From a virus, in the IMG/VR virus record IMGVR_UViG_637000095_000001: a DNA stretch of 64,000 nucleotides; one strand, given 5' to 3'. Below the pieces are notes generated by a model that made no database searches, was not told the DNA's origin, and worked only from the letters and a program-made list of their open reading frames with translations. Both the position numbers and the translations under genes were made by a program. Below, piece by piece: positions 3,510 through 52,687 of this stretch. Within the stretch, counting starts at the first letter, position 1. Each line of letters begins with the position of its first letter.

Positions 3510-3540
3510 CCGACGGATTGAAGTCCCTCCCGGTAAGTAA
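3510..3540 (+). promoter_or_regulatory. Element-specific bipartite promoter motif, copy 1
   Basis: CCGACGG-N13-CCGGTAAGTAA upstream of the small ORF/DUF2924/recombinase operon. Confidence 0.8.
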
Positions 3541-3610
3541 CCTCCGAAAGTTCCGAGGGTTCGTCTCGGACATGAGTTAGAAACCAGACAATTGGCCGGA
3601 TGCCAGGCAG

Positions 3611-3660
3611 AGGCGGTTGTGGGTGCTGAAAAACGCGCATCCCAACCGCCTTTTGTTTTT
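3611..3660 (+). terminator. Leader terminator/attenuator hairpin
   Basis: AGGCGGTTG(T)GGGTGC...GCATCCCAACCGCCT followed by TTTGTTTTTT. Confidence 0.6.
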
Positions 3661-3706
3661 GGCACCCGCAGCTTCCCTCATCGGCACCGGCCCAACGGAG
3701 GCCCTT

Positions 3707-3970
3707 ATGCTTGATGTGGAATTAGCACCAGAAAACCCTTACTCAAACCAGTTGACCGACGACCAATTGCCGGATGCTGAAGGCATTAACCCGGAGCAGC
3801 GGCTGGATGCCATTGCGGCCATTCTGGCCATTGCCGCACTCAGGAGTCGGTATCGTAAGGCCAATAATGCCAACAACTTAAAGAATGTTGCAGATTCTTC
3901 CGGAACCTTCGGAGAAGGACTTGATTCTTCTGCCAGAAAGAGCGTCATTCATGACAACCGAGTCCTGTAA
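3707..3970 (+). CDS. Small hypothetical protein upstream of DUF2924
   Basis: GGAGG RBS then ATG 3707; 87 aa, PEQRLDAIAAILAIAALR helix. Confidence 0.6.
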   Translation: MLDVELAPENPYSNQLTDDQLPDAEGINPEQRLDAIAAILAIAALRSRYRKANNANNLKNVADSSGTFGEGLDSSARKSVIHDNRVL

Positions 3971-3990
3971 TCGAATATAAGGAGTTGAAA

Positions 3991-4497
3991 ATGAATGACT
4001 TGAAAAACAAAAAAACGGAGCCGACCAAGACCTCGGTGTTGAGGCAATTGGCAACGCTCCAGAACATGAGCCTTGATCAGCTCAGAGAGAAATGGCTGGA
4101 CCTTTATGGAACCGAGCCACCCCAGTACAAGAAGCAGTTTCTGGTTAAACGGCTGGCGCACCGGATTCAGGAGCTCTTTTACGGCGGCCTGTCGGAGCAG
4201 GCCAAATCTCACCTGAAGAAAGTTGCCGAGACCGATCCGGTGGCAACGGTCATCCGCAAGATTCCGGAAGAACGAAAATCACAGGAAGCCATTCTGCCGG
4301 GCACCCGGTTTGTCCGGATTTGGAACGACCAGCGCTATGAAGTGATCGCCCGGGAAAGCGGCTTTGAGTACGACGGGCGCATCTTCAGATCACTGAGCGC
4401 CATAGCGAGGGAAATCACAGGCACCCGCTGGAACGGCAAGATCTTTTTCGGCCTGAAGAACAGTCACAGAAAAAAGGAAGGTGGTCCGAATGCTTAA
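3991..4497 (+). CDS. DUF2924 family protein
   Basis: LREKWLDLYG..PP...L..RLAHRIQE..YGGL and PGTRFVRIWN...F.YDGR..RSLSAIAREITGTRWNG..FFGL; AAGGAG RBS. Confidence 0.85.
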   Translation: MNDLKNKKTEPTKTSVLRQLATLQNMSLDQLREKWLDLYGTEPPQYKKQFLVKRLAHRIQELFYGGLSEQAKSHLKKVAETDPVATVIRKIPEERKSQEAILPGTRFVRIWNDQRYEVIARESGFEYDGRIFRSLSAIAREITGTRWNGKIFFGLKNSHRKKEGGPNA

Positions 4498-6073
4498 CAA
4501 TAACAACACACAAAACGGCCAGCGTAAAACGCTCCGCTGTGCCATCTATACCCGGAAAAGCCACGAGGAAGGTCTGGATCAGGAATTCAATTCACTCGAC
4601 GCCCAGAGGGAGGCCGCCGAAGCCTACATCGAAAGTCAGAAGCTGCAGGGATGGAAGGCCATCCCTTACCGATATGATGACGGCGGCTTTTCCGGCGGCA
4701 CCATGGAACGTCCGGCTCTGCAGAGACTGCTGGCGGATATCGATGCCGGTAAGATCGATGTCATCGTTGTTTACAAGATCGACCGGCTATCCCGATCCCT
4801 GCTGGACTTCATGAAGATGATTGAGCTTTTCAATGAAAAGGAAGTGAGCTTTGTATCCGTCACCCAGCACTTCAGCACCACTGACTCGACGGGCCGCATG
4901 TTTCTGGGAATCCTGATCACCTTTGCCCAGTATGAGCGTGAGGTCATTGGTGAGCGTATCCGGGACAAGGTGGCCGCCGCTAAACGCCGGGGAAAATACT
5001 GCGGCGGGCCTGCTGTACTCGGTTACGACGTGGACCGGGAAAACAAAAAGCTGCTCATCAACCAGAGCGAGGCACCGCTGGTGAAACTCATCTTCAGGCG
5101 ATACACGCAGGTGGGATCGGCAAAGAAGGTGGCGCAGGAGCTTAACGAGCAAGGATACAAAACCAAGTCATGGACCACCAAGAAAGGCAAGGAGCGGATC
5201 GGTACCGAATGGAACACGGCTCAGGTCTATCGCCTTCTCAACAACAGGCTCTATATCGGAGAGATCGCTTACAAGGGTAAAAACTATCCGGCGGAGCATG
5301 ATGCCCTGATTGATCAAAACACATGGGACAAGGTTCAGGCGCTGCTCTCGGAAAACAATCGAACCAAGATGAGCAAGGCCCGGGTGAAAATGGTCTCGCC
5401 CCTGAGCGGAGTGATCCGGTGCGGCCACTGCGACAGCGCCATGGGCATCACCTATACCAACAAAGGCGACCGCCGCTACTCCTATTATATATGTGAAAAG
5501 GATACCAAACGCGCCGTCAGCCGGTGCCCTTTGAAACGGGTTCCTGCCGGAGACATCGAGTCGGTGGTACTTGACCAGCTGGGAGCCGTATTCAGAACAC
5601 CGACCTTGGTGGCCAAGACCTACTTTGCCGCCAGAGAGATCGAGGCCGAAGAACGAGAGCGCTTGCAGGTCCAGAAGAAGGAACTCGAACAATCCCTGCA
5701 GAGCGTCAGGCAGGAAGCTCTGAAGCTGATGTCGCCCGACAATGATGATCCCGACCGGAACAGCCGACTGCCCTTGGTCAATCAGCAGGCCGTCGATCTG
5801 ACCAAACAGCTCACCAATGTATCGGCCCGATTGAAGGTAATTGATACCGAACAGATTTCCGAGGGGGATGTATCCGAAGCCTTTCAGAGCGTGAAAACCT
5901 TCTGGGAGGATCTGTTTCCCCTCGAGCGAAACCGACTGATCCAGCTTCTGGTGGAAACCATCGAAATACGGGAAACGGGAATCGACATGGAACTGAAAAC
6001 CAACGGTCTCACAAACCTTGTCACCGAGCTGGCCGGTCTGGCCTGTGAAGTCAGGGAAAGGAGTAACAGCTGA
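4490..6073 (+). CDS. Large serine recombinase (integrase)
   Basis: AIYTRKS (catalytic Ser), DDGGFSGGTMERPALQRLL, KIDRLSRS, recombinase domain, Zn ribbon CGHC...YYIC. Confidence 0.95.
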   Translation: MLNNNNTQNGQRKTLRCAIYTRKSHEEGLDQEFNSLDAQREAAEAYIESQKLQGWKAIPYRYDDGGFSGGTMERPALQRLLADIDAGKIDVIVVYKIDRLSRSLLDFMKMIELFNEKEVSFVSVTQHFSTTDSTGRMFLGILITFAQYEREVIGERIRDKVAAAKRRGKYCGGPAVLGYDVDRENKKLLINQSEAPLVKLIFRRYTQVGSAKKVAQELNEQGYKTKSWTTKKGKERIGTEWNTAQVYRLLNNRLYIGEIAYKGKNYPAEHDALIDQNTWDKVQALLSENNRTKMSKARVKMVSPLSGVIRCGHCDSAMGITYTNKGDRRYSYYICEKDTKRAVSRCPLKRVPAGDIESVVLDQLGAVFRTPTLVAKTYFAAREIEAEERERLQVQKKELEQSLQSVRQEALKLMSPDNDDPDRNSRLPLVNQQAVDLTKQLTNVSARLKVIDTEQISEGDVSEAFQSVKTFWEDLFPLERNRLIQLLVETIEIRETGIDMELKTNGLTNLVTELAGLACEVRERSNS

Positions 6074-6492
6074 TGAAGAAGATTAAACCAACCATCAAAC
6101 TTTCAGACAGCGGAAACCTGCACATCCATATCCCCATGTTCATCCGGAGAATGCGCGGCCGCAAAATGGTATTCACACCTGATACGCTGGACGGTGAAAA
6201 CGAAGGCATGCCGGAAACGGTGCAGACGGCCATTGTCCAGTCGCTGGCCAGAGCCTTTTCATGGGCGGACATCCTTGAGAGTGGTGAGATCAAGTCCATC
6301 AGCGAGCTGGCCAGAGATCTCGATGTGGATTCATCCTACGTCGCCAGAACCCTGAAACTGACCACACTCGCCCCGGACATTATCGAAGCCATCATTAACG
6401 GTGAAGAGCCCAGCGGATTATCCCTATCAAAGCTGGTGAAAACATTCCCTCTCGACTGGAGTGAACAGCGATCATTCTTTGGTTTCAGCTGA
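6073..6492 (+). CDS. Recombinase-associated HTH protein
   Basis: TGATG coupling; SISELARDLDVDSSYVARTLKL helix-turn-helix. Confidence 0.8.
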   Translation: MKKIKPTIKLSDSGNLHIHIPMFIRRMRGRKMVFTPDTLDGENEGMPETVQTAIVQSLARAFSWADILESGEIKSISELARDLDVDSSYVARTLKLTTLAPDIIEAIINGEEPSGLSLSKLVKTFPLDWSEQRSFFGFS

Positions 6493-6519
6493 TCGCTATC
6501 CCAAACCATCATCCTCAAC

Positions 6520-6544
6520 AGCCGACCTTGTGTCGGCTTTTTTT
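6520..6544 (+). terminator. Intrinsic terminator
   Basis: AGCCGAC cttgt GTCGGCT followed by a T-run. Confidence 0.8.
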
Positions 6545-6774
6545 ATGCCCTGACGAGTGAGCCCAACGAAATTTCACTGAGGGGTGGTAAAAAAAGTTAA
6601 AAAATATTTCCCCGCCTCATTCAATCAAATCCCACTCAAATTCAAGGCATTAGCCAATCCAAGCGCATCTGTATCGGGTGAAATTTCAGTGGTCCAACGA
6701 AATTTCGCCAAAGAAGGGTGACAGGTCTGGTGAACAGAAAAACGTTCACGACCTCACCCGGAGAAATCATGCCG

Positions 6775-6794
6775 GACCTGTCTTCCGGGAGGTC
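6775..6794. promoter_or_regulatory. Candidate repressor operator GACCT-N10-AGGTC (copy 2)
   Basis: (G)GACCT gtcttccggg AGGTC(C), just upstream of the RBS of the operon containing the sigma gene. Confidence 0.55.
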
Positions 6795-6814: not shown

Positions 6815-7141
6815 ATGAACCAGATAAAGAAGACAGAACTAAACGAGCCGCAGCAAAAGCTCATCGAGCTGATGCAGCAAATCAACTTCGGGCGCATTTC
6901 CAACATACCGGTTGTGGGCGGAAATCCCGAACTCACCGCAGACACCATTATCGAGCGTGAAATCAAACTGGGCGGCCAGAACGGTAACCGTCCGGAGCTG
7001 GCCAAGGATGACTTCACCCTGAAGCAGGAAGTGCTCGCTCTTATCGAACACCTTACCCGCATGGGTGATGGAATCATCCGTCATCTTGAAATCAAGCATG
7101 GGTTGCCATTCCTGATCCGTATCGAGGAACGGGCAGCATAA
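6815..7141 (+). CDS. Hypothetical protein (108 aa)
   Basis: AAGGAGG RBS, ATG 6815. Confidence 0.8.
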   Translation: MNQIKKTELNEPQQKLIELMQQINFGRISNIPVVGGNPELTADTIIEREIKLGGQNGNRPELAKDDFTLKQEVLALIEHLTRMGDGIIRHLEIKHGLPFLIRIEERAA

Positions 7142-7356: not shown

Positions 7357-7941
7357 ATGTTTTATCGAAATTCCTATGACGGCATCGATGGCTATGCCGC
7401 AGACCTTATTCGGCACAAGGCAAGACAACTGGTGGGTAAAGCAGGACTGACAGAAGACGATCGGCAGGATCTCGAGCAGGAACTGATGATCGATCTGCTG
7501 GGCAGGATGAAGCACTTCAATCCAGCCAAGGGCAAAAAGACAACCTTCATGACCCGCATCGTTGAGCGGCGGATCTCAACCATTCTGGAAGCCCGCTTCG
7601 CGCAATGCCGGGACTGGCGCAAATGCACCGCCTCTCTCAACGATCCCATTCCGGGCGGAGATAACGATTCCGCCGAGCGTATCGAGCAGGTCTGCAGTGA
7701 TGGACAGATGGGACATCACGGCCGGGATACCAACGAGCAACGGCAGAACGACATCCGCTTCGATCTCGAACGGGTCATTGCCGCACTGCCGGAAGACCTG
7801 CAGGAGCTCTGCGAAAAACTGCAGTCGAGCAACATGGCTGAAATCGCAAGGGAGATGGGCGTTCCGCGCAGCACCCTCTACGGAAAACTGACCAAGCTGC
7901 GGGACGCATTCCGGGATGGTGGATTGGAAGAATACCTCTGA
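7357..7941 (+). CDS. Sigma-70 family (ECF-like, regions 2 and 4) RNA polymerase sigma factor
   Basis: Region 2: DRQDLEQELMIDLL...FNPAKG..TTFMTRIVERRI; region 4 HTH: LPEDLQELC...SNMAEIAREMGVPRSTLYGKL; GAGGAGG RBS. Confidence 0.85.
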   Translation: MFYRNSYDGIDGYAADLIRHKARQLVGKAGLTEDDRQDLEQELMIDLLGRMKHFNPAKGKKTTFMTRIVERRISTILEARFAQCRDWRKCTASLNDPIPGGDNDSAERIEQVCSDGQMGHHGRDTNEQRQNDIRFDLERVIAALPEDLQELCEKLQSSNMAEIAREMGVPRSTLYGKLTKLRDAFRDGGLEEYL

Positions 7942-7945: not shown

Positions 7946-7976
7946 CCGACGCATCGCCCGGGGTTCCGGTAAGTAA
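7946..7976 (+). promoter_or_regulatory. Element-specific promoter motif, copy 2
   Basis: CCGACGC-N13-CCGGTAAGTAA, 4 nt after the sigma stop, heading the replication operon. Confidence 0.85.
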
Positions 7977-8049: not shown

Positions 8050-8370
8050 ATGGAAACTTACAAGTATCGCTTTGATCAGTCGGTCCCGGCTCAGGACTTG
8101 GAAGATACCTTCATGCTGGCGTTGCTGGCTGTGGAAAGCATGTATGGACACTCCAGAGTGAGGATGGAATCCCGCTTCAATCTGGATAAGCAAAACCGCA
8201 CCTGCTTTATCGACGCAGCGACCAAGGTCGGCTGTGATCTGGCGAGCATCTTTACCGGATTCGCCACCAAGGAGTATGGCGAACGAGCGGTAATGATCGA
8301 CCGTGAGCCCGCCAGTGGCGGATGCGCCTGCAATGCAAAGGCACCTTCAGCAATGGAGGTGGCGGTATGA
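8050..8370 (+). CDS. Hypothetical protein
   Basis: AGGAG RBS; ATGA overlap with the next gene. Confidence 0.75.
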   Translation: METYKYRFDQSVPAQDLEDTFMLALLAVESMYGHSRVRMESRFNLDKQNRTCFIDAATKVGCDLASIFTGFATKEYGERAVMIDREPASGGCACNAKAPSAMEVAV

Positions 8371-9383
8371 GCGAATTGATGACCACCACGTATTCCATGT
8401 GGCGGCTCTTCCGCAATTGCCGCAAGGCTTGTGAATACCGCTACCTGAGGAACCTTGTTCCTCTGGAGCGGGATCACAACCTGGCTTTCGGATCGGTCAT
8501 TCACGACTGCCTTGAAATCTGGCATGGCCAGCGGGAGCTCGAAAAGGTTCTCGAACACATTGATCAGGTCTATGCCAACCGGGCACAGGATGATCATCAA
8601 CTCGCCGACTGGCATCTGGCCACCGCCATGATGAGTTCATACTCGGAGCATTATCCCGTCGAAGACTTTGACGTGGTTGCTCTGGAGAAGACCTTCGAAG
8701 GTCCCATCGTCAATCCGGATACCAACGCCGCATCGAGAAGTTTCGTGCTGGCTGGCAAGGTGGACGGTTTGGTCCAGCAGGATGGTCAATACTTCCTGCT
8801 GGAGCACAAGACCGCCTCACAAATCGATGCCGGTTATCTGGAGCGGCTTTGGACTGATTTTCAGATCATTATTTATGCGTGGTATCTGGAACAGACCCTC
8901 GGCATCCGTATCTCCGGCATCATCTACAACGTGCTGGTCAAAGCCAAACTGCGCCAGAGCAAAGGCGAAACGGAAGCTGAGTTTGAATCCCGCCGTGCCG
9001 AGCTGATTGCCAAATCCAAAACCGGCAAGAGCAGCGCCAAGCGCAAGATGCCCGAGCCGGATGATGTCTTTCAGCAGCGCCTCAAAGACAAATACCTCGA
9101 ACCCGGCATGTTTCACCGGGAGATGCTCTACATCTCCCGCGATCAATTCGACGAGCTTCGCAGTGAGCTTTGGGAACTATCCAAAGCCATGTTGGATGCC
9201 CGTCGCCGCAACACCTTCTACCGCAATACGGCCTTCTGTTTTCAGTATGGACGCGCCTGTCCTTACTTCCCGCTGTGCCGGAGCGGTGAGAACCCCAACG
9301 TCATTGAAAACCATTACCAACGGGTGCTCCCGCACGAAGAGCTGCGGGATGGAGCAAGTGAAGACGCTGCCCCTGTTTTTTAA
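8367..9383 (+). CDS. PD-(D/E)XK exonuclease, RecB/AddB/Cas4-like with Fe-S staple
   Basis: LAGKVDGLV...LLEHKT...Q..IYAW; Cys at NCRKAC and CFQYGRACPYFPLC; start moved to ATG 8367 (GGAGG RBS). Confidence 0.85.
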   Translation: MSELMTTTYSMWRLFRNCRKACEYRYLRNLVPLERDHNLAFGSVIHDCLEIWHGQRELEKVLEHIDQVYANRAQDDHQLADWHLATAMMSSYSEHYPVEDFDVVALEKTFEGPIVNPDTNAASRSFVLAGKVDGLVQQDGQYFLLEHKTASQIDAGYLERLWTDFQIIIYAWYLEQTLGIRISGIIYNVLVKAKLRQSKGETEAEFESRRAELIAKSKTGKSSAKRKMPEPDDVFQQRLKDKYLEPGMFHREMLYISRDQFDELRSELWELSKAMLDARRRNTFYRNTAFCFQYGRACPYFPLCRSGENPNVIENHYQRVLPHEELRDGASEDAAPVF

Positions 9384-9408
9384 CCCAAACCATACAAGGA
9401 GATAAATC

Positions 9409-10179
9409 ATGCTTCCAAAAAGCAAAACCAAACCGAAAGCACACCTGAACGACCTGACCGCGCTGGTCTACGGTCCAAGCAAAATCGGCAAGAGCACGTG
9501 GTGCTCCCATGCGGAGAACGCCCTGTTTCTCGCCACGGAACCGGGCCTGAACGCCCTCGAAGTGTTCGAAGCGCCTATTACCTGCTGGGACGACCTTCTG
9601 CAGGCGTGTGCCGAGATTGCCGAAGGCAAACACGACTTCAAGACCATCGTCATCGATACGGTGGATAACGCCTATCGCATGTGTGCGGATTATGTCTGCA
9701 AGAAGTTCAAGATCGAGCACGAGTCCGACCTTGGCTACGGCAAAGGCTATGCCCTCATCAACAATGAGTTTCAGCGCGTTCTCAACAAACTGGCCTTTCT
9801 GCCATACGGCCTGATCCTCATTTCCCATTCCCACGAGCGTGATATCGAAACACGCACCGGGAAACACACACGCATCGTGCCGACCCTGCCGGACAAGGCC
9901 CGCAAGCTGGTGACCGGTCTGGTGGACCTGATCCTGTTCTGTGATCTGGACATGAAAACCGGTGACGACGGCAAGCCCATCTATCAGCGGGTGATGCGAA
10001 CCAAGCCAAGCCCCAATTACGACGCCGGAGACCGTACCGGCCGACTTCCGGAGATGATCCCTCTGGATTTCCCGACCTTCCTGAAAGCTTTCAATCAAAC
10101 GGCTGCCGGTTCAGCGGTGAGTGCCGCCCGGACAAAGTCGGAGCCAGCCACAACGGCTAAACCTCAAACTAAGGAGTAA
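9409..10179 (+). CDS. Phage AAA ATPase (AAA_24/Sak4-like)
   Basis: Walker A GPSKIGKST, Walker B IVIDTVD. Confidence 0.85.
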   Translation: MLPKSKTKPKAHLNDLTALVYGPSKIGKSTWCSHAENALFLATEPGLNALEVFEAPITCWDDLLQACAEIAEGKHDFKTIVIDTVDNAYRMCADYVCKKFKIEHESDLGYGKGYALINNEFQRVLNKLAFLPYGLILISHSHERDIETRTGKHTRIVPTLPDKARKLVTGLVDLILFCDLDMKTGDDGKPIYQRVMRTKPSPNYDAGDRTGRLPEMIPLDFPTFLKAFNQTAAGSAVSAARTKSEPATTAKPQTKE

Positions 10180-10658
10180 TGACAATGAGTTGGAATAACG
10201 ATGACACCATGGACCTCGCGCAGTTCGACGATGATTTCGTTTCTGCGGATGTTGAAGAAAAGGACTTTGAAGCTGTTCCCGACGGGAAATATCAGGTCAA
10301 GGTCGATCGTGTGGAACTGACCCGCTCGGAAACTTCCGGCAATCCCATGCTCAAGTGGGCGCTGAAGATTCTGGGTCCCACGCATAAAGGCCGTCTGCTC
10401 TGGCGTAACAACGTCATTGCCAGCAAGGACAATGTGAAATGGCTCAAGCAGGATCTTTATACCTGCGGCCTGCAGATGGACAAGCTCTCCGATCTCCCGG
10501 GCAAACTGGAAACCCTTCTGGATGTCGGACTCGAGGTGACTAAGCGCACGAAAAACGAATTCGAGAACATCTACTTCAACCGCCGGATTGTGCTTTCGGA
10601 TGAAGACGCCGCCGCACCGTCGACCGGTCACGATGTAGACGACATGATTCCGTTTTGA
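10179..10658 (+). CDS. DUF669 family / putative single-strand DNA-binding protein
   Basis: VPDGKYQVKV...SETSGNPMLKW.LKI; acidic C-tail ending DDMIPF. Confidence 0.8.
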   Translation: MTMSWNNDDTMDLAQFDDDFVSADVEEKDFEAVPDGKYQVKVDRVELTRSETSGNPMLKWALKILGPTHKGRLLWRNNVIASKDNVKWLKQDLYTCGLQMDKLSDLPGKLETLLDVGLEVTKRTKNEFENIYFNRRIVLSDEDAAAPSTGHDVDDMIPF

Positions 10659-10660
10659 GG

Positions 10661-11137
10661 ATGGGCATGGTTACCGTTGTCGTTGATACCCGGGAACAGG
10701 AGCCTTACGGATTTGATTCGGAATCAGTCGCATCAGTCCGCAAGGCCCTCCCGGCGGGAGATTACTCCATCGAGGGATTCGAGACCCGGGTGGCGGTGGA
10801 AAGAAAGTCCATGGCGGATTTTGTCTCCACTGTCATCAGAGGCCGAAAGCGTTTTCACAAGGAGCTGGAAAAGCTCCGGCATTATGACGCGGCCTGTGTC
10901 GTCGTTGAGGCCAATTACCGGGATATTCTCGGGGCCTGCTACCAGAGCGACGCTCATCCAAACGCCCTCATAGGAACCATTGCCTCCATCATCATCGACT
11001 TCGGTGTGCCCGTTTATTTCTGTTCAGACCGTCAGGCAGCCTGCCGGTTTGTTGAAGAGTTTTTAATGCGCTTTCACCGGAGGTTCGCTCAATGCCAAGA
11101 AAAACAAACTCCCCGGCAAAACTCCGGGGAAGAATAG
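10661..11137 (+). CDS. ERCC4/XPF-domain nuclease
   Basis: VVDTREQ...GDYS...VAVERKSMADFV. Confidence 0.88.
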   Translation: MGMVTVVVDTREQEPYGFDSESVASVRKALPAGDYSIEGFETRVAVERKSMADFVSTVIRGRKRFHKELEKLRHYDAACVVVEANYRDILGACYQSDAHPNALIGTIASIIIDFGVPVYFCSDRQAACRFVEEFLMRFHRRFAQCQEKQTPRQNSGEE

Positions 11138-13314
11138 AGAGAGTTTATTATGCCGGGCCAAAGTTTTCCGCAGGCCGTTTGCTCACCGCCACAGGAGAGG
11201 AAATCCAGTTTGCCGGAAATCTGTTTGCCCGTGAAAATCAGCCCGTGGTCCTTTTGGGGACGTGGGCCACCCATCCGAAATATGGTCGCCAGTTCAAGGT
11301 CGATGCCATGGAGCACGATCTTGATCTGAACCCGGAAGGATTGATTCACTATCTGGCCAATCACCCTGACATCAAAGGGATTGGTCCTGCCAAAGCCCGC
11401 CTTATCGTTGAAGAGTTCGGCGATTCTTTCGAGGAGACCCTGATTGAATCCCCGGAGCTCATCGCATCAAAAGCCAGAATTTCCCTCGATGCCGCTAATC
11501 GTCTTAAGGATGAATGGTGTAAAAACCGCAGCGTCAATGCCGTCCTGGCATGGCTCTCCGCCTTTGGGTTGACCCACCATCAGGTAACCACGCTGGTCGA
11601 TAAGCTGGGCGGGAACTGTCTGGAAATCCTCAAAGCCGATCCTTACATCCTCATCCGGGAACTGCGTGGATTCGGCTTCAAGAAAGTCGACAAGATTGCC
11701 CGCAAACTGGGTACGCCCAAAGACCACACCCCAAGAATCCGTGCCGGTATCCAGTACTGCATGCACGAGGCGCTGGATCAGGGAAACTGCTGGGTCGAAT
11801 ACGAGGACCTAGTTGATCAGGCCAATCTGCTGCTGGTGATGGATAATCTGGACAGCCGCATCCGTATCGAAGCCTCGCTGGACAATCTGATCAGTGAAAG
11901 ACTGCTTTCCTGTGAATCACACGCGGGACGTTTTCTGGTGGCGCTTTCCGATATCCTGAAAATGGAACAGGATATCGCCGCCATTTTCACCAAGGCGGAT
12001 GCCTCGAACCCTCATTTCAAATCGACCCGCAATCTACAGAAGCTGATTCTTCGTCAGGCGGAAACGCTCAATGAAAAGCAGCTCGAAGCGGTTCACTCTG
12101 CTTTGCAGCACTCCATCAGTCTGATATCCGGTGGAGCCGGATCGGGAAAAAGCTACACCGTATCGGTCATCAACGCGGTATGTGAAGAGTGCGATCTGGA
12201 AGTGGTTCTTTCCGCTCCGACAGGCAAAGCGGCCAAAAGGCTCGAGGAAGTGAGCGGTCGCACCGGAACCACAATCCATCGACTGCTTGGCTATGACGGC
12301 AAGTCCTTTTCAAAGGACAGTAACAATCCCATCGATGCCGACATCCTGATCATCGATGAGTTTTCCATGGTGGATGTTTCTCTGGCATGGCACCTTTTCA
12401 ATGCGGTGGACTTTGCCAGAACGGCCATTGTCATTGTGGGAGACCATAACCAGCTACCGCCGGTCGGACCGGGAAATATCCTTCGGGATCTGATTCACTC
12501 GAATGCCATCCCCACGGTCATTCTGGATAAGGTGGTCAGGCAGGCCGGTGTGTTGAAGGAAAACAGCACCGCCATTCTCAAAGGCGAAGTTAGGAAAACC
12601 AGTGATGCCAGTACACAGGGCTGCCGGGATTGGTATCTGGCGGATCAGTTCACCGACCCGGGTGCTGCTCGAAATTTCCTGCTGGATCTCTTTGACAAGC
12701 GGCTCGATGCCCTTGGATTTGATCTAATCAAGGATGTGCAGGTGTTGACTCCAACGCACAAGGGGCCGCTGGGAACCAAGTCACTCAATGAAGATTTGCA
12801 GCGGCTTATCCAAAAGCGTCTCTGGAATGTGAGCGTTCCGGAAACGCAACTGGGTCGCCGGTCGCCATTTTTGAAACATGACAAGGTCATTCAGACCCGC
12901 AACAACTACGACCTGAACGTCATGAACGGTGCCATCGGTCATGTGGTCGATGTGCTGCCCAACGGCACGCTGCTGATTGATTTTGAGGGTGTGGCAGTTG
13001 AGATTGAAAAAGGTTCACCGAACCTTCAGGACATCCAGCTGGCCTATGCGCTGACAATCCACAAAACCCAGGGATCGGAATTTCCTTGCGCTGTTGTGGT
13101 GGTCCATAAGGCGCACTCGTTCATGCATCATCGCAACCTGCTGTACACCGGTGTCACCCGTGCCCGCAAGACTGCGATTGTACTCGGTGACCGCTGGGGC
13201 ATCCGCAATTGCGCCAAGAAATGTCAGGTGGATGACCGCAAGACCTTTCTTTCCATTCTGTTGAACAATTTGAATTGCCCTGAAGAGCAGTCAGCTTGTG
13301 CGGGGGCATTATGA
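11092..13314 (+). CDS. recD2: RecD2-like SF1B helicase
   Basis: N-terminal OB and HhH (IKGIGPAKA), Walker A GGAGSGKS, IIDEFSMVD, GDHNQLPPVGPG, AYALTIHKTQGSEF, LLYTGVTRA. Confidence 0.92.
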   Translation: MPRKTNSPAKLRGRIERVYYAGPKFSAGRLLTATGEEIQFAGNLFARENQPVVLLGTWATHPKYGRQFKVDAMEHDLDLNPEGLIHYLANHPDIKGIGPAKARLIVEEFGDSFEETLIESPELIASKARISLDAANRLKDEWCKNRSVNAVLAWLSAFGLTHHQVTTLVDKLGGNCLEILKADPYILIRELRGFGFKKVDKIARKLGTPKDHTPRIRAGIQYCMHEALDQGNCWVEYEDLVDQANLLLVMDNLDSRIRIEASLDNLISERLLSCESHAGRFLVALSDILKMEQDIAAIFTKADASNPHFKSTRNLQKLILRQAETLNEKQLEAVHSALQHSISLISGGAGSGKSYTVSVINAVCEECDLEVVLSAPTGKAAKRLEEVSGRTGTTIHRLLGYDGKSFSKDSNNPIDADILIIDEFSMVDVSLAWHLFNAVDFARTAIVIVGDHNQLPPVGPGNILRDLIHSNAIPTVILDKVVRQAGVLKENSTAILKGEVRKTSDASTQGCRDWYLADQFTDPGAARNFLLDLFDKRLDALGFDLIKDVQVLTPTHKGPLGTKSLNEDLQRLIQKRLWNVSVPETQLGRRSPFLKHDKVIQTRNNYDLNVMNGAIGHVVDVLPNGTLLIDFEGVAVEIEKGSPNLQDIQLAYALTIHKTQGSEFPCAVVVVHKAHSFMHHRNLLYTGVTRARKTAIVLGDRWGIRNCAKKCQVDDRKTFLSILLNNLNCPEEQSACAGAL

Positions 13315-18125: not shown

Positions 18126-18136
18126 GCGGTCTCCTC

Positions 18137-37161: not shown

Positions 37162-37165
37162 GCCT

Positions 37166-37844: not shown

Positions 37845-37856
37845 AGGAGAACAACC

Positions 37857-38114
37857 GTGATCGAGATCAGAAACCTGCAGTTCCAACCCCTGACGTTCAA
37901 CCTCTCCGGCCAGGGAACCCTTCACCTCGGGCCGCGAGAACGCAAGAGCATCGCCCGCAAGGACCTCTCCGCCGAGATCAAGACCGCCGGAAAACGCGGC
38001 CTGGTGCGCATCACCGACCTGACCGGCGGCGCGGAACCGGAACCGGAAAAGCCCACGGCAACCGAGGACGCCGCAGCCGATGAGGCCAAGACCACCAGCA
38101 AGCGGAGGAAATAA
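37857..38114 (+). CDS. Small protein preceding the sheath
   Basis: AAGGAG RBS; 85 aa. Confidence 0.7.
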   Translation: MIEIRNLQFQPLTFNLSGQGTLHLGPRERKSIARKDLSAEIKTAGKRGLVRITDLTGGAEPEPEKPTATEDAAADEAKTTSKRRK

Positions 38115-38116
38115 CC

Positions 38117-39646: not shown

Positions 39647-39661
39647 CGGGAGAACACGGCT

Positions 39662-40123
39662 ATGAGAAGCGGAAATATGCCCAAGAGCCTTTACCAGAAC
39701 TGGCAGTTCGCCATCGAGGTAAACGGCTTCGACGTGGCCCTGTTCCACAAGGGACAGGAGCCCAAAACAGAATTCGAGGAAGTGGCCTTTGCCCCGGCCG
39801 GTTCGATGTTCGACCAGAAGGTGGCGGGGCGGGTCAAGTTCGAGGACATCACCCTCGAGAAAGGCAACCTGCAGGACGGCTCCGACGAGGCGGCACGCGA
39901 ATGGATCAAGAAACAGGTGGACGTGAACGCCGTCACCGGCGGCCTTCCGGCCGACTACATGCGCGACATCGACGTTGTCCGCTACGACCGCACCGGCAAC
40001 GAGACCCGCCGCTGGACCCTGCATGGGGCCTGGGTGAAGGCGCTCGAATACGACGAGCTCGAAGGCGGCAACACCGAGAACACCATCGAGAAGCTCACCA
40101 TCTGCTTCCAATACTGGACCTAA
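39662..40123 (+). CDS. Tail tube protein (T4 gp19-like)
   Basis: FAIEVNG...KFEDITLEKG...W...RRWTLHGAWVK...IEKLTICFQY. Confidence 0.9.
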   Translation: MRSGNMPKSLYQNWQFAIEVNGFDVALFHKGQEPKTEFEEVAFAPAGSMFDQKVAGRVKFEDITLEKGNLQDGSDEAAREWIKKQVDVNAVTGGLPADYMRDIDVVRYDRTGNETRRWTLHGAWVKALEYDELEGGNTENTIEKLTICFQYWT

Positions 40124-43900: not shown

Positions 43901-44595
43901 AGGCGATCAAGGATAGAAGCGCTGGGATCGCCAACGGTTTGCTCTCCTCCGCTCGTGCCATGCTGGGAGTCCAGACCCCGATTCCGCAGGTGGCCGAGCA
44001 GAAGCAAACACTCGGAGCTGCGCAGCCCGCCGAATCGATTGGGCAACGCATCATCGAAAGCGTGCTGAGTCTCGTGCCGCGTCTGGACGAGCGCCTGGTG
44101 CCCAAGGCCCTGAGCGCCATGCTGATGCTCCAGCCGGTCATGGCCACTGCCGCGCCGCCTCCGCAACCGATGAACGGCATCGTGCAGACCGTCGCAGCGG
44201 CCGTCGAGCCGGTAAGTAAGAGCTATATCCAGCCGTTCGCGGTGGAACCGCCACTGGAAAACGGAGATGCCTCTCTGGCTCCGGCCGGGATCGAGCGGCC
44301 CAAGACAACCGCGCCGACTCCGATAGCGAAGCCCCTGCAATCCGGACTCACCGAGACGGTGCCTTCCGAACGGTTGATCGCTCCGGCCCGCACCGCTCCC
44401 GCGACACCCATGCGCGGAGAGGAAGCCGGTCCGGGAGTGCGCGAACTGCTGGAATCCCTGCTCTCGCGCCTCGATGGCCTGGCCGACCGCCCGGTGGAAT
44501 TGAGCGTGACCACCAACATCGATGGTCGGAAGGTGGCCGAGGCGGTCTACAAGGACCTGCGGGAGCGGAAGATCAGAAACTACGAAACCCTGTGA
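40960..44595 (+). CDS. Tape measure protein (TP901-type core)
   Basis: 1211 aa, Ala/Gly-rich amphipathic helices, Trp-spaced repeats. Confidence 0.92.
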   Translation: MNGDLGLGIVVSMKDAFSQNAQRIRGSMMDLDSTVADASERMTRNLDRIQQGTMMLGAGLALMAVPAALVASTAATQKALGELASLGVQDLRAIEDAAESFTNQWSGADKAAFITATYDVKSALSNLSDEAVGVFTSMAAMTAKATKATTQEMVGTFTTAYGIFKPIMADMNDMEWATAFSGAMAQTVASFKTNGTQMADAIKNIGAVAAASNIPLNEQLAVLGQLQTTMPGSEAGTLYKAFIMKAAEAGDELGLSFTDTSGRLKGVVPILQEIKRQFPDLSNAAAQVKLKKAFGSDEAVKFLLQMSAGMESLEGNIQSVGRAMKTGTAVTEQMADAMNQDIGARFLLLRQQMANLSEILGRTLLPVVTPVINGVSRVILFLQRMAKSMPGVTRVVLGLSMALGTILVVAGAVTAAVGMVGLMLPAIKAGFVAISAALAGVGSAVATYFLPVTAIIAGVILSVYLLKRAWETNFGGIQDVITGAWNKVSLVFRGVRELVGSLSGGVGQMSAELAQKLESAGLLGFVVTVFKAYYRVREALAGLWGAFSHAFGRIRAILEPTVRTLMSAYAALASAVFSVVEIFGVAASATDGSSWRTFGTVIGTVAGVLLQGLAFALKIVAWNLSLIVRALAVVVRSVVWVGKIIVGTLVGAAKFIYKFLLPVRMIGEAFVAAGKIVYAVWQVLSGDISLLDGLKAIGGAVYDFLATPFRWARDVVVGVWNFISGIFTSIGRLVADAAGQIGQAILNLPIISTLRDLFATVRSFFAGDTTFFEAGKKLLITLGEGIWSAVTYPFTMLKNALGKLRNLLPFSDAREGPLASLTASGSALLKTLADGMSLTQSLPAKVFGFAARGILSDAAGAWQQIKSAGGNLMEAASAPFRMAGKLWDGLTTGAQSVAAKAGAIFGGLKQSLFGDTPELALTPPQVNTWDALATGAVNLRDRIVATLSAVPGAVGRIFTNAGAEGQTLWQRLSTGASAGIQAIKDRSAGIANGLLSSARAMLGVQTPIPQVAEQKQTLGAAQPAESIGQRIIESVLSLVPRLDERLVPKALSAMLMLQPVMATAAPPPQPMNGIVQTVAAAVEPVSKSYIQPFAVEPPLENGDASLAPAGIERPKTTAPTPIAKPLQSGLTETVPSERLIAPARTAPATPMRGEEAGPGVRELLESLLSRLDGLADRPVELSVTTNIDGRKVAEAVYKDLRERKIRNYETL
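44189..44219 (+). promoter_or_regulatory. Element-specific promoter motif, copy 8 (inside the tape measure gene)
   Basis: CCGTCGC-N13-CCGGTAAGTAA. Confidence 0.65.
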
Positions 44596-44603: not shown

Positions 44604-44915
44604 ATGAAACGCATCTTTGTCTGCAGCCCGTTCGCGGGCGGCATAGCCCGAAACGTCAGGGTCGCCGAGGCGCTTTGCCGCCGGATCATGCGAAGTGGTC
44701 ACGCGCCGTTCGCGCCGCACCTGCTGTATCCGACCTTTACCGATGACAGCGTTCCCGAGCAGCGGGAGACGGGCATCGCCTGCGGCCTGGCTTACATGGA
44801 ATGTTGCAACGAGGTATGGGCGTTCACCGGCAACGGCATTTCCAGCGGCATGCGGCTGGAACTCGACCGGGCCGGACAACTGGGCAAGCCGATCATCGAG
44901 ATCGCCGAGGTGTAA
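44604..44915 (+). CDS. DUF4406 / nucleoside 2-deoxyribosyltransferase-like protein
   Basis: IFVCSPFAG...APFAPHLLYP...CCNEVWAF...ISSGMRLE...GKPI. Confidence 0.75.
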   Translation: MKRIFVCSPFAGGIARNVRVAEALCRRIMRSGHAPFAPHLLYPTFTDDSVPEQRETGIACGLAYMECCNEVWAFTGNGISSGMRLELDRAGQLGKPIIEIAEV

Positions 44916-44918
44916 GGA

Positions 44919-45389
44919 ATGGCCTGGGATCAACAGCCCATCAAGGGATATCTGGTGGATGCCGACACGGGGGAGCGGCTCGAATTCCAGTACAACCCCA
45001 ACTCCATCAGCGACGAGAAGTCGACCGACTACGCGACGATCAAGATCCCCGGCATGAGCCATCCGCGTTACCAGTACGTCGCTGGGGAACCACGCCGGAT
45101 CGCCTTCAAGGTCGAGCTGTTCAAAGGGCCGGTAAAGCAGAAGGTCGACTGGCTCCGCTCGTTGCAATACCCGGAGCACGCCGGAACCATGCTCAAGAAT
45201 GCGCCGCACCGCGTGCTGCTCATCTTCGGCGATCTCTATCCCGGCGTGACCTGCATCGTCCGGCAGGTGAAGGCGCGGTTCTTCGGCCTGTTCGATCGGG
45301 ACAACCTGCTGCCGCAACGGGCCGAGGTGGACATCGTCCTCGAGGAATACGTGGACCGTTCCATCAACTGGTCGGAGGTGCGCTCATGA
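44919..45389 (+). CDS. Tube-initiator / CIS-tube-like baseplate protein
   Basis: LEFQYNPNSISDEKS...QYVAGEPRRIAF.VEL...PHRVLLIFG...RAEVDIVLEEY. Confidence 0.8.
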   Translation: MAWDQQPIKGYLVDADTGERLEFQYNPNSISDEKSTDYATIKIPGMSHPRYQYVAGEPRRIAFKVELFKGPVKQKVDWLRSLQYPEHAGTMLKNAPHRVLLIFGDLYPGVTCIVRQVKARFFGLFDRDNLLPQRAEVDIVLEEYVDRSINWSEVRS

Positions 45390-45676
45390 TCGGCCGTGAT
45401 TCCCGATACGCCCGCTGCGTTCTCTACCGGGACAGCGACGGCACCTCCCTCGGCATGCGCCAGCGCATCGACACCACCCCCAGATACGACGACCGCCTGC
45501 ACACCGTGGTCGAAGGCGACCGCCTGGATCTGCTCGCGCACCGCTATCTGGGCGATGCCCGGCTCTGGTGGATCATCTGCGACTACAACGACATCTTCTT
45601 TCCGCTGGAACTCGATCCGGGCCTGGCGCTGCGCATACCCTCCCGCGAACACGTCCAGATGCGCCTGCTCGACTGA
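45386..45676 (+). CDS. LysM/gpX-like tail protein
   Basis: HTVVEGDRLDLLAHRYLGDARLWWIICDYN...LRIP; start moved to ATG 45386. Confidence 0.85.
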   Translation: MIGRDSRYARCVLYRDSDGTSLGMRQRIDTTPRYDDRLHTVVEGDRLDLLAHRYLGDARLWWIICDYNDIFFPLELDPGLALRIPSREHVQMRLLD

Positions 45677-45681: not shown

Positions 45682-45712
45682 CCGACACCTCGCCATGCCT
45701 TCCGGTAAGTAA
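45682..45712 (+). promoter_or_regulatory. Element-specific promoter motif, copy 9
   Basis: CCGACAC-N13-CCGGTAAGTAA. Confidence 0.85.
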
Positions 45713-49817: not shown

Positions 49818-50824
49818 CGGATACCCCGCCAGCCTTTAGCCACTGGGAGGTTCAGCCTCGCTCCATCCGCCTCTCCGCTGGCGAGTTCGAGCAACGGGTT
49901 CCGCTCTCCCTGCGCGGCGACGTGGACGCCCCGGTCTTTGCCTCCAGCAACCCGGAGGTCGCGGAGATCGAGCCGGATGGTGTCATTCGCTGCGGCTGGA
50001 CCATCGGCAACGCCGTGCTCATGGTCTGGCGATCCTCGGCCCGGGACAGCCTTCGCCATGTTCTGGTGGAGGTCCGCGATCCGTCCTGGTTCGCCGACCA
50101 CCCGGACTTTGCCAGCGGAGCATCGGTCTTCCTCAGTGGCACGGTGATCAACGCCCTCAACACCAGCGGCGTCGGCAACGCGCTGATCGAATTCCGCCGC
50201 TCGGAAACCGGCCCGGCGGCGTTTCAGACCTTCGCCAACGCCTATGGCGGGTTTGAGCTGTCCGTGCCCGAGGGATTCTATTACGTGGAGGTCACAGCGC
50301 CGGGATACATCGCCTGGCACGGCTGGGTGAACGCCGACCCCAACACCTCCGGCGACATCCAGATCGTTCTTTCGCCCGAGCTCGACGGCCAGGTCGCCCG
50401 CATCGTGTTGCAGTGGGGCCTCAACCCCAGGGATCTCGATTCCCATCTCACTGGACCGACGCCATCGGGCGGCAGGTTCCATGTGTTCTATTCCCACACC
50501 ATCGAAAACGAGGCGGCGGAATTGGACGTGGACGACACCAGCTCCTACGGGCCGGAGACCATCACCATCCATCGGCTCATCCCCGGCGTCTACCGCTACG
50601 CGGTCCACGACTACACCAACCGCAACGCCAATCCGAGCACCGGCCTGGCGCAGTCGGGAGCATCGGTGAAGGTGTTCTTGAGCGATGGCCGTGAGCAGAC
50701 CTTCACCGTTCCCAACGCCCCGGGCACGGTCTGGACCGTGTTCGAAATAGACGGCGCGACCGGGACTGTGACGCCGGTCAACGCCATGAGCTATCAATCC
50801 CAACCCGCCAACGTCGGCATGTAA
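49814..50824 (+). CDS. Ig-like + carboxypeptidase-regulatory-like + YfaP-like virion protein
   Basis: FASSNPEVAEIEPDG; LSGTVINA...YYVEVTAPGY; IVLQWG..PRDLDSH...LDVDDTSSYGPETI. Confidence 0.75.
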   Translation: MTDTPPAFSHWEVQPRSIRLSAGEFEQRVPLSLRGDVDAPVFASSNPEVAEIEPDGVIRCGWTIGNAVLMVWRSSARDSLRHVLVEVRDPSWFADHPDFASGASVFLSGTVINALNTSGVGNALIEFRRSETGPAAFQTFANAYGGFELSVPEGFYYVEVTAPGYIAWHGWVNADPNTSGDIQIVLSPELDGQVARIVLQWGLNPRDLDSHLTGPTPSGGRFHVFYSHTIENEAAELDVDDTSSYGPETITIHRLIPGVYRYAVHDYTNRNANPSTGLAQSGASVKVFLSDGREQTFTVPNAPGTVWTVFEIDGATGTVTPVNAMSYQSQPANVGM

Positions 50825-50836
50825 TGGAGGTTGTCC

Positions 50837-51727
50837 ATGATTTCCGAAGAACCCGCCGACTTGCAGGCCACCATCGAACAAACCGATTCCGGCCAACAAC
50901 AGTATGTGCTGCGGGCGCTCTGCGATCACCTGTCCGGCATCCGTGAAGAACTTTCCGGCATCCGCACGCTGCTGGAGGCCAGTCACGCCGCCTCGGAGGC
51001 GATGCGTGGCCAGGCCCAGGCCTATCTTGAGGCCCAGCAGGCCAGGACCCAGGAGTACCTGGAGCAGGTACAGATCGAGCCGGAGCCCGATTTTTATCCC
51101 TTTGTCGAACTGCCAGCGGGCACCGAACCCCGGGATCTGCCGGATGGCAACCGGCTCTTCACCTTGCCCGACGGCATGATCCTGCGGACCACGGACGACC
51201 AGCGAATTTGCGTTATCGACGGCGGGGAACAGCAGGTCATCACCCCCGGACCCGGCACGGCCATAGAGGTCGCCCCGGGACGCCTTTACACCCTGGTCGA
51301 GTCCTATCTGAGCGCGACCCAGGAGGCAGCCGGTATCAGCGGACTGCCCGCCGGGATCGAGCCGACCGCCATGGGCGCGGAACGCTTCGCGGTGGATCTA
51401 CCCGAGGGCATCCGTCTCGACGTCGATCACCGGGAGCGGTTCATCACCCTCATCAATCCGGCCGGACCTATCGACATCATCGGCATCGGCCGCATCGAGG
51501 GCATCGGCGAAACCATCGCTGTCCGTCTGCTCTCCGGCGGAGCCAAAGGATTCCAGTGCGGCCAGTCCGACCACGGCGGGCTGATCGAGGCGGACGGAAC
51601 CATCCATCTGGGACTCAAGAGCGGTCTAGATCTGGTGGTCCGGTTCCAGGGAGAAGCCATCGACGACGGCGCACCGGAAAATGGCTGCTCGGGACAGTGC
51701 GGCCTCGACTGCGAGGAGCGTACCTGA
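50837..51727 (+). CDS. Hypothetical protein
   Basis: GGAGG RBS; TGATG coupling to gp25. Confidence 0.75.
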   Translation: MISEEPADLQATIEQTDSGQQQYVLRALCDHLSGIREELSGIRTLLEASHAASEAMRGQAQAYLEAQQARTQEYLEQVQIEPEPDFYPFVELPAGTEPRDLPDGNRLFTLPDGMILRTTDDQRICVIDGGEQQVITPGPGTAIEVAPGRLYTLVESYLSATQEAAGISGLPAGIEPTAMGAERFAVDLPEGIRLDVDHRERFITLINPAGPIDIIGIGRIEGIGETIAVRLLSGGAKGFQCGQSDHGGLIEADGTIHLGLKSGLDLVVRFQGEAIDDGAPENGCSGQCGLDCEERT

Positions 51728-52644
51728 TGAGCTACGACTTTCTCGGCAAGGGGCTGCGTTACCCGTTCCGGTTTCAGTCGGTATCCGGCGGCACCCAGAT
51801 ATCGACCGCCACCTCCCGTGAGCACGAGCATATCCGCGAAAGCATCCTGCAGATCCTCGGCACCCGGATCGGCGAACGGTTCATGAATCCAGAGTTTGGC
51901 TCCCGGCTGAAGGATCTGGTTTTCGAACAGAACGACGAGGTGCTCAAGGGCCTGCTGCGCCACTACGTGATCGACGCCATCAAGCGCTGGGAAAAGCGGG
52001 TGATCATCACGGAGGTACACTTCGACGACCGGCCGCTGAACATCGACGGCAACCTGCTGCTGGTGCATATCGCCTACCGGGTGATCCAGAGCCAGGTGGA
52101 CGGCAACCTGGTCTATCCCTTCTACAGAGAAGACCCGAACAATCCCGCACCCAGCTATCCCCAGCCGGAGCCCGAGCCAGAGCCGCCGCCGGTGCGCAGC
52201 GTGCGCCTGTCGCCGGACGTGCGCACGCTGTTCAATCTGCTCTGGTTCGACGCGGCCGAAATGAGCCCCGATCCGGACGACTCCTTGATCTGGCCAGCCG
52301 GGGAATACGAAGTCGCCTACATCGAGGGAGCCTTTCAGGACCGCAACGGCAAGTGGATCGTCAGCGATCCGGGTGACAACCACGGCCATTACCTGACGTT
52401 CGAGGGAGCGCCAGAAACAGAAGCGCCCCAGGCCGAGCACGCCCTCTATCTGGCCGCGAGCGGTCTGGGCTTCGACACCCAGAGTCAGGCGGAAGACAAC
52501 GCCGCTGGCACCGTTCACCGGATCACCACCCTGGAGCCGGGCCGCATCGGTCTATTCTATTTCGAGGGCAAGAAGGAATCCCACTACCTCAACAACACCT
52601 CTGGGCAGCCCAATCCCGTCTGGCAACTGCGCGGCCCGCTCTGA
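51727..52644 (+). CDS. gp25/gpW baseplate wedge protein with C-terminal extension
   Basis: HIRESILQILGTRIGERFMNPEFGSRL..LVFE...WEKRV; then PQPEPEPEPPP linker and about 150 extra aa. Confidence 0.85.
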   Translation: MSYDFLGKGLRYPFRFQSVSGGTQISTATSREHEHIRESILQILGTRIGERFMNPEFGSRLKDLVFEQNDEVLKGLLRHYVIDAIKRWEKRVIITEVHFDDRPLNIDGNLLLVHIAYRVIQSQVDGNLVYPFYREDPNNPAPSYPQPEPEPEPPPVRSVRLSPDVRTLFNLLWFDAAEMSPDPDDSLIWPAGEYEVAYIEGAFQDRNGKWIVSDPGDNHGHYLTFEGAPETEAPQAEHALYLAASGLGFDTQSQAEDNAAGTVHRITTLEPGRIGLFYFEGKKESHYLNNTSGQPNPVWQLRGPL

Positions 52645-52656
52645 GGCATCCCGCCT

Positions 52657-52687
52657 CCGACACATCCAGGCCCCTTCCGGTAAGTAA
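52657..52687 (+). promoter_or_regulatory. Element-specific promoter motif, copy 10
   Basis: CCGACAC-N13-CCGGTAAGTAA heading the baseplate J to fibre operon. Confidence 0.85.

Follow-up and report, generated by a model that had tools for sequence, protein, structure and literature searches.

The stretch of viral DNA analyzed here (IMG/VR record IMGVR_UViG_637000095_000001; 64,000 nt, referred to as the window) contains a 31-bp bipartite element, CCG(A/T)C(A/G)(C/G)-N13-CCGGTA(A/T)GTAA, in ten copies, which are all located on the plus strand and all have a spacer of 13 nt (Table 1). Comparative sequence data make it quite likely that this element is a promoter read by the host core RNA polymerase together with an extracytoplasmic function (ECF)-type sigma factor of the prophage itself, encoded at 7357–7941. 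The ten coordinates, the plus-strand orientation and the exact 13-nt spacing had been listed in an earlier description of the window (the original prediction), and a pattern search on both strands confirmed all of them.

When up to two mismatches were allowed, no sites appeared on either strand of the window beyond the same ten. In dinucleotide-preserving shuffles, the full bipartite pattern is expected 0.01 times, and the 11-mer CCGGTAWGTAA, which also occurs ten times in the window and only on the plus strand, is expected 0.27 times. The information content of the ten sites amounts to about 41 bits over 31 nt; their conservation begins at the initial C of CCGAC and does not go beyond the terminal A of GTAA. 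An extended consensus (CCGACACATC...CTTCCGGTAAGTAACC) is common to the late copies and absent from the early ones, and promoter strength could be graded by it.

The 194-residue product of the open reading frame (ORF) at 7357 had been taken for a sigma factor in the original prediction, and profile searches bear this out. Pfam Sigma70_r2 (PF04542) matches residues 16–74 with 28 bits (cutoff 24), PHROG 1740, a sigma family, is matched with an E value of 7e-18, and TIGR02937 scores 46.1 bits (cutoff 42.9), covering profile positions 12–159 of 165 over residues 16–183. Helix-turn-helix (HTH) matches fall at residues 154–184. In the Pfam search Sigma70_r4 was not reported at E <= 0.01, and neither Sigma70_r3 nor Sigma70_r1 was matched; hence there is no sign of region 1.1 or a sigma-3 domain within the 194 residues. 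For a profile of 21 homologues, the nearest solved structure is the ECF factor SigE of Rhodobacter sphaeroides (2q1z), which aligns in two stretches: residues 21–82, and residues 129–179, which align to the sigma-4 domain of 2q1z. The linker between sigma-2 and sigma-4 is variable in the alignment of homologues and is about 45 residues long. The Sigma70_r2 and TIGR02937 matches and the two-stretch alignment with 2q1z therefore identify a two-domain ECF-type sigma factor.

Two comparative checks had been proposed along with the original prediction, namely the co-occurrence of motif and sigma factor across related prophages and a comparison with the host chromosome, and both turned out as foreseen. 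The first gave a tight association. The full pattern was present in 10 of the 151 genomes of the family of G001, the nearest genome in the collection searched, and nine of these ten encode a 67–70% identical sigma factor directly upstream of a copy, while the tenth contains only a prophage remnant. A scan of the genome collection with the sigma profile yielded 80 loci, 75 of them with downstream sequence, in which the sigma identity ranges from 36 to 99%. Their hosts belong to the Desulfobacterota, Gammaproteobacteria, Acidobacteriota, Planctomycetota, Verrucomicrobiota, Chloroflexota, Nitrospirota, Armatimonadota and other phyla. In 72 of the 75 loci, down to a sigma identity of 36%, a motif starts no more than 45 nt past the sigma stop codon.

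A consensus built from 65 de-replicated sites of this family reads tCCGAC(A/G)..T(C/T)...c.tCCGGTA(A/g/t)GTAA(c/g)c, and its conservation ends directly after GTAA. Several positions that the search pattern had left free are nonetheless 77–100% conserved. The boxes also vary in concert, in all copies of an element: CCGGTA is found in 10/10 copies in the window, GGGTA in 4/4 copies of locus L119 and 3/3 copies of genome G156, and a terminal ...GTAT in 3/3 copies each of G119 and G100. Since independent sites change together within an element, these variants point to a shared reader that is encoded by the element. In three loci with GTCAAC as the −35 box, Tyr175 of the sigma-4 domain is replaced, which looks like a single evolutionary event; as a link between residue and base, this covariation is only a hint. 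The three variant copies in G119 (CCGACGTTT-N11-CCGGTA(T/C)GTAT) are the only ones in an apparently smaller element with a 42%-identical sigma factor (G119:C1, 3380001–3450000, loci L048–L051; also G100:C2). The same 70-kb stretch of G119 contains a repeat array of about 200 copies, which resembles a very large CRISPR array.

Selective conservation of the boxes emerged from the prophage of a Geopsychrobacteraceae metagenome-assembled genome (MAG), which has just ~73% identity to the window in the late region. In this prophage, too, the motif occupies all ten places of the series. Across the six late pairs of sites, the −35 and −10 boxes are 90% and 98% identical, as compared to 47% for the spacer, 29% for the 30 nt upstream and 56% for the downstream flank. 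At the eighth place, where the flanks are not alignable without gaps, the boxes are canonical, and the distance to the following copy is ~1.5 kb, as it is in the window.

The second check concerned the restriction of the motif, for which short or loosened box patterns were run against ten whole genomes. With few exceptions, the copies in these genomes lie within co-oriented prophage clusters. In the 3.9-Mb genome G001, the 11-mer occurs 14 times, on one strand and in two prophage-sized clusters, with none elsewhere, as compared to four matches of the reversed control. With a loosened pattern, all 31 matches in a 9.1-Mb Bryobacterales chromosome (control 0), all 14 in Desulfosarcina alkanivorans, in two adjacent clusters, and 8 of the 11 in Ectothiorhodospira shaposhnikovii, in one cluster, were located in this way. 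Two MAG chromosomes have 10/11 and 10/10 matches in one cluster each. Across the 151 genomes, the reversed control of the full pattern gave 0–1 matches per genome. The motif is thus prophage-confined and strand-specific.

Paired motif copies, 70 nt apart and accompanied by a 62-residue ORF, were observed at L149 (G008:C67, 5518–6606), G024:C10 (~8812–8913) and G159:C55 (2276–2376). The L149 pair adjoins a transfer-messenger RNA (tmRNA) gene (6253–6606, minus strand), with host recA and alaS directly downstream, and its first copy with the preceding 330 bp shares 82% identity with the DNA that precedes the promoter of the capsid module. Given this match and the tmRNA neighbor, the ideas of a satellite exploiting the sigma factor and of host recA control were rejected for these pairs; judged by its homology, the fragment is a prophage remnant, with ssrA as the probable attachment site.

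Within the window, each copy heads a gene module. As originally described, most of them follow closely on a stop codon: seven of the ten begin 4–16 nt past the stop codon of the preceding ORF or overlap it. Nine end 24–88 nt before the next start codon, and most of these starts have a GGAG-type ribosome site. The exception is the copy at 44189, which lies within the tape-measure ORF with the next gene 372 nt further on; it probably acts as a promoter, internal to that ORF, of the baseplate-wedge gene at 44801–45676. The original prediction had placed the copies ahead of excision, replication, terS, portal, capsid, tail and baseplate operons. Recombinase, replication/recombination, portal, head, tail and baseplate modules were indeed recognized behind them, as was the large terminase; terS was not identified. 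Between 16000 and 35900, no plus-strand sigma-70-like promoters were detected before the structural (late) modules, and the sole plus-strand sigma-70 match in this interval, at 17295, falls under a minus-strand Fic ORF.

These positions bear on two explanations other than a promoter for the phage sigma factor. The copies are strand-specific, lie between modules and have no terminators in front of them, as an RNA-level element for processing, stability or protein binding at the module junctions of long polycistronic transcripts would, and some of the downstream leaders form stable hairpins (z scores of −2 to −4 at 19760, 24693 and 52657). However, there is no conserved structure across the motif, the hairpins are inconsistent, with z above −1 at six of the ten sites, and the 13-nt spacer varies in sequence while keeping its length, as would be expected of two DNA contacts. 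Furthermore, copy 1 lies in a divergent intergenic region, where there is no upstream plus-strand transcript to process. An element acting in RNA is therefore very improbable. A conserved leader hairpin following the motif was likewise rejected, as only 3–4 of the ten leaders fold better than shuffles.

The other explanation is a polar DNA signal unrelated to transcription, serving packaging, replication or the guiding of recombination, or else a promoter for an unrecognized phage RNA polymerase. Such a signal would account for the co-orientation of the copies along 49 kb, and the prophage does have several large ORFs of no known function. On the other hand, nine of the ten sites are intergenic and each is just before a start codon, and no RNA-polymerase-like protein was found among the ORFs scanned. 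In addition, the orientation of the motif tracks the local gene module and not the genome axis: the elements with 68–70% identical sigma factors carry the recombinase module in the opposite orientation to the sigma gene, and the motif copy of this module is turned round along with it. We consider this the least probable of the explanations, with hardly any weight left to it.

Table 1. Positions of the motif copies, the proposed regulators and the modules of the prophage in the window
Feature	Position	Strand	Remarks
Motif copy 1	3510–3540	+	heads module of ORF117, DUF2924, serine recombinase and ParB-like protein (3617–6492), which an intrinsic terminator closes
Motif copy 2	7946–7976	+	starts 4 nt after sigma stop; heads replication/recombination module (8050–16613)
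Motif copy 3	18668–18698	+	heads ORF262 (18737–19525) and HTH_23 small protein (19515–19790)
Motif copy 4	19760–19790	+	sole copy with CCGGTATGTAA; overlaps stop of HTH_23 ORF; its module ends with large terminase (23160–24683)
Motif copy 5	24693–24723	+	heads portal (24759–26306) and 1529-residue minor-head fusion protein
Motif copy 6	31771–31801	+	heads 799-residue DNA methyltransferase and major head protein (34648–35511)
Motif copy 7	37166–37196	+	heads tail module: sheath (38117), tube (39662), tape measure (40960–44595)
Motif copy 8	44189–44219	+	most divergent copy (CCGTCGC... GAG before CCGG); in 3' part of tape-measure ORF
Motif copy 9	45682–45712	+	heads tail protein (45743), peptidase/endolysin-like ORF, baseplate wedge (51208–52644)
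Motif copy 10	52657–52687	+	heads baseplate wedge (52744), tail protein (54150), then ~11 kb more of plus-strand genes
ECF-type sigma factor	7357–7941	+	194 residues; sigma-2 at ~16–82, sigma-4 at ~129–187
ORF108	6815–7141	+	conserved unknown protein; upstream of sigma, co-transcribed
ORF106	8050–8370	+	conserved unknown protein; first gene behind motif copy 2
LexA-like repressor	2780–3403	−	phage-borne, divergent from copy 1; LexA DNA-binding domain and S24 peptidase
Palindrome GACCT-N10-AGGTC	3467–3486		exact match; overlaps promoter of LexA-like gene; candidate operator
Palindrome GACCT-N10-AGGTC	6775–6794		exact match; 21 nt before ORF108-sigma operon; candidate operator for sigma expression
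Intrinsic terminator	6520–6548	+	7-bp stem, then seven T; closes recombinase module
Recombinase module	3617–6492	+	DUF2924, large serine recombinase, ParB-like protein
Replication/recombination module	8050–16613	+	ORF106, PD-(D/E)XK nuclease, AAA_24, DUF669, ERCC4, RecD2-like helicase, primase
Head/packaging genes		+	large terminase, portal, 1529-residue head-morphogenesis fusion, methyltransferase, major head protein
Tail genes		+	sheath, tube, tape measure, baseplate and tail proteins
Late-region relatives			loci L140–L145; G159, Ectothiorhodospira (Gammaproteobacteria); G158, Desulfosarcina (Desulfobacterota)

The original prediction had proposed that the motif is the cognate promoter of the 194-residue sigma factor, and the comparative evidence (restriction to prophages, co-occurrence, adjacency and box conservation) supports this assignment. 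In the promoter reading, the sigma-4 domain would recognize CCGAC(A/G) as the −35 box, the sigma-2 domain would recognize (C)CGGTA(A)GTAA / CGGTAAGTAA as the −10 box, and the first transcribed base would be no more than about 10 nt past the last GTAA. The element has two parts and no symmetry, its CGAC and CGGTA are 16 bases apart, and a T-rich stretch follows the −35 box. ECF promoters typically have AAC in the −35 and CGT in the −10 element, with spacers of 14–17 bp (PMC5758882). By analogy, the geometry of the motif, with its 16-nt gap, its short −35 box ending in AC and its T-rich stretch, fits such promoters. That one sigma factor serves both early and late genes, as had also been suggested, is plausible.

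The sigma operon itself is the only rightward, lytic unit without the motif. No copy is present between the terminator at 6520–6548 and the sigma start, where autoregulation would require one; the nearest copies are those at 3510, from which the terminator would insulate the sigma operon, and at 7946, which is downstream. A motif-free sigma operon fits a cascade in which one sigma factor switches on the excision, replication and structural modules.

The candidate for the top of this cascade is the LexA-like repressor, which matches TIGR00498 with 183 bits (cutoff 111) and has homologues in the related prophages. Its gene has a sigma-70-like promoter, TTGACC-17-TATATT, at 3488–3460 on the minus strand. 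By means of GACCT-N10-AGGTC, which the ORF108-sigma operon shares with the repressor's own promoter, the repressor would silence the ORF108-sigma operon. Upon DNA damage, it would cleave itself, and the host housekeeping sigma factor would then transcribe ORF108 and the phage sigma gene. The phage sigma factor would in turn fire the ten module promoters for recombinase/excision, replication, packaging, head, tail and baseplate. From the sequence we infer the binding of the sigma factor to the motif, the start positions and the repressor step alike. As operators, the GACCT-N10-AGGTC pair is a better candidate than the GAAATTTC palindromes at 6567, 6679 and 6698, which are clustered, yet whose pattern is not enriched in the window; these were rejected. 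A perfect inverted repeat, GTGAAC-N8-GTTCAC, is located at 6730–6749, 25 nt upstream of the palindrome at 6775, and could serve as another operator or as a LexA box of the host.

Several observations weigh against the assignment of the motif to the sigma factor or against parts of the circuit. The core boxes, GAC and CGGT with 16 nt between them, are non-canonical for ECF factors, in that GAC and CGGTA differ from the canonical AAC/CGT. The repressor-operator step is based on just two copies of the palindrome. One sigma factor for ten modules leaves the timing of early versus late expression without explanation. The late region is contained in 14 RNA sequencing (RNA-seq) runs; in their assembled contigs, breaks fall where paralogous prophages branch and not at promoters, and no 5' ends are visible. 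Finally, ORF108 and ORF106 are as tightly linked to the motif as the sigma factor is, and because of this equal linkage the comparative data alone leave either of them as a possible reader or a required co-factor. With regard to the RNA-seq data, 88–100% of the words sampled from the late region (30000–39999 of the window) are present in libraries of one cultured organism, which come from three studies, and in oligo-dT libraries that carry the label of a second organism; raw reads suited to locating the starts are therefore probably public.

The linkage of ORF108 and ORF106 opens an alternative in which the motif is the site of another phage factor, such as ORF108, ORF106 or the HTH_23 protein at 19515–19790, that activates or anti-terminates the host holoenzyme, while the sigma factor has a different or partial role. 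ORF108 and ORF106 are conserved beside the sigma factor in nearly all loci. Nearly all of the 80 loci have a homologue of ORF108, located some 500 nt ahead of the sigma start, and ORF106 follows the sigma gene in most of them. Gram-positive phages use Ltr activators (RinA, ArpU), which have a likeness to sigma region 4, at late operons. The phiEco32 sigma factor gp36 needs a small protein, gp79, alongside it (PMC12276001). However, no sigma-70-type −35/−10 elements accompany the sites, the motif has two parts, no symmetry and an ECF-like geometry, and within the conserved trio only the sigma factor has DNA-reading domains. ORF108 has no Pfam or PHROG match, and its AlphaFold2 model (predicted local distance difference test, pLDDT, 92) shows a duplicated helix-plus-hairpin unit with no PDB match; the model of ORF106 (pLDDT 89) has a generic ferredoxin-like fold. 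Neither model has an HTH or other DNA-binding fold. Taken together, these findings make a reader other than the sigma factor unlikely. An anti-sigma role was also considered: neither ORF108 nor ORF106 matches an anti-sigma domain, and their confident models resemble no solved anti-sigma fold. By analogy with gp79, either of them could be a co-factor of the sigma factor, or a regulator.

Homology to related prophages continues past both ends of the window, all of which is internal to a prophage that exceeds 64 kb and has a contractile tail. The GC content of the window is 0.60, and no tRNA genes were found in it. A leftward lysogeny block ends with the LexA-like repressor, and all of the following genes are rightward except one. 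This sole minus-strand gene within the rightward array encodes a Fic/DOC-domain protein (16614–18260) in a region of low GC content (0.49–0.50). It has a promoter match, TTGACA-17-TATATT at 18187–18159, with 11/12 identity to the sigma-70 consensus, and is probably a moron expressed in the lysogen. The ORF of 1529 residues (26306–30895) combines an SPP1 gp7 / Mu F-like minor head domain (residues ~25–280) with a long region matching PHROG 6577, of unknown function. Deposited phage records gave no DNA match to the window; at the protein level, the capsid is matched by Bacillus phage G at 31%.

The early and late regions of the window have different relatives. About 40 kb of structural genes (~20.8–63.4 kb) are 96–97% identical in DNA to prophages of the isolates Ectothiorhodospira shaposhnikovii DSM 243 and Desulfosarcina alkanivorans PL12. 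The early region (1–20.4 kb), on the other hand, is 93–95% identical to the Geopsychrobacteraceae MAG with the divergent late region. These differing relatives, together with near-identity across phyla, indicate that the lineage is mosaic and has recently spread between very distant hosts. Both types of module, early and late, use the same promoter motif. An attractive idea suggested by these sequences is that self-encoded promoter recognition, common to all modules, explains both the mosaicism and the spread. We put forward tentatively, and with considerable doubt, that the sigma factor and its portable 31-bp promoter constitute a host-independent transcription system that would enable the phage lineage to function in very distant hosts and to swap modules freely. 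If the phage does owe its independence of host promoter specificity to its private sigma factor, the cross-phylum host range of a temperate phage would have a mechanistic explanation. The near-identical prophages with their own promoter recognition provide a concrete hypothesis for an unusually broad host range.

The proposed circuit, from the repressor through the sigma factor to ten promoters, would be a full one for a large, uncultured and very widespread prophage family. Lysogens exist among cultured isolates, including D. alkanivorans PL12, E. shaposhnikovii DSM 243 and Desulfobulbus rhabdoformis DSM 8777. For finding such prophages and the starts of their operons, the motif is a simple and highly specific marker. 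Moreover, as the sigma-promoter pair apparently works in many phyla, it is a possible orthogonal expression system for non-model anaerobes.

A search of the literature gave no description of this consensus, sigma clade or phage family. Among 50,697 deposited phage records, the only relatives of the sigma factor are sigma-70-domain proteins of Wolbachia phage WO (MN180251, KX522565 and HQ906662), with 22–24% identity over more than 90% of its length and E values down to 2e-11. WO is also a temperate phage, and the relationship is very distant. To our knowledge, no WO promoter has been defined.

The sigma-2 plus sigma-4 architecture is that of cellular ECF factors (group 4), such as SigW, SigX and SigM of Bacillus subtilis and SigE of R. 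sphaeroides (PMC5758882; PDB 2q1z), and the motif shares with their promoters the bipartite form, the −35 box ending in AC, CG(G)T in the −10 box, the 16-nt gap and the T-rich stretch after the −35 box. Unlike these factors, the one described here is virus-borne and would serve a viral lytic program, not an envelope-stress regulon, and its boxes are CCGAC and CCGGTAAGTAA instead of AAC/CGT. ECF sigma factors usually, although not universally, have a co-transcribed anti-sigma factor, and autoregulation from their own promoter is usual. In the window prophage, neither a recognizable anti-sigma partner nor autoregulation is apparent.

The classic phage sigma factors are SPO1 gp28 and T4 gp55, and RinA and ArpU are activators of the Ltr superfamily that switch on the late operons of Gram-positive phages. 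Those systems have one or few late promoters, or successive sigma factors, whereas here one full ECF-type sigma factor apparently serves about ten promoters covering all lytic modules.

Closer parallels are found in phiEco32 and in plasmid pBS32. The phiEco32 gp36 protein is an ECF-family phage sigma factor that acts with its partner gp79 at middle and late promoters (PMC12276001). In both phages, a two-domain ECF-like sigma factor redirects the host core polymerase to a phage consensus that recurs throughout the genome, although this is a prediction in our case, and a search of the PDB with the sigma profile gave no match to gp36. phiEco32 is, however, a virulent podovirus of E. coli, whereas the window derives from a temperate, myovirus-type prophage, in which the predicted regulon spans the recombinase, the replication and all of the structural modules; its promoter consensus also differs from that of phiEco32. 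That ORF108 is a partner like gp79 is conjecture.

SigN (ZpdN) of the B. subtilis plasmid pBS32 is expressed from a LexA-repressed housekeeping promoter, is derepressed by DNA damage and drives a regulon on the element itself (PMC6751061). The window prophage would resemble it in each of these respects, as far as the sequence tells. SigN differs in having an autoregulatory, SigN-dependent promoter (PMC6751061), whereas no motif precedes the sigma operon of the window. The proposed repressor is here a phage-borne LexA-like protein, and the host phyla and the consensus differ. The kind of system, a sigma factor encoded by a phage or other element with private promoters, is thus already known from phiEco32 gp36 and pBS32 SigN, and two of its features, an element-borne sigma factor and a recurring consensus confined to the element, are present in the prophage described here.

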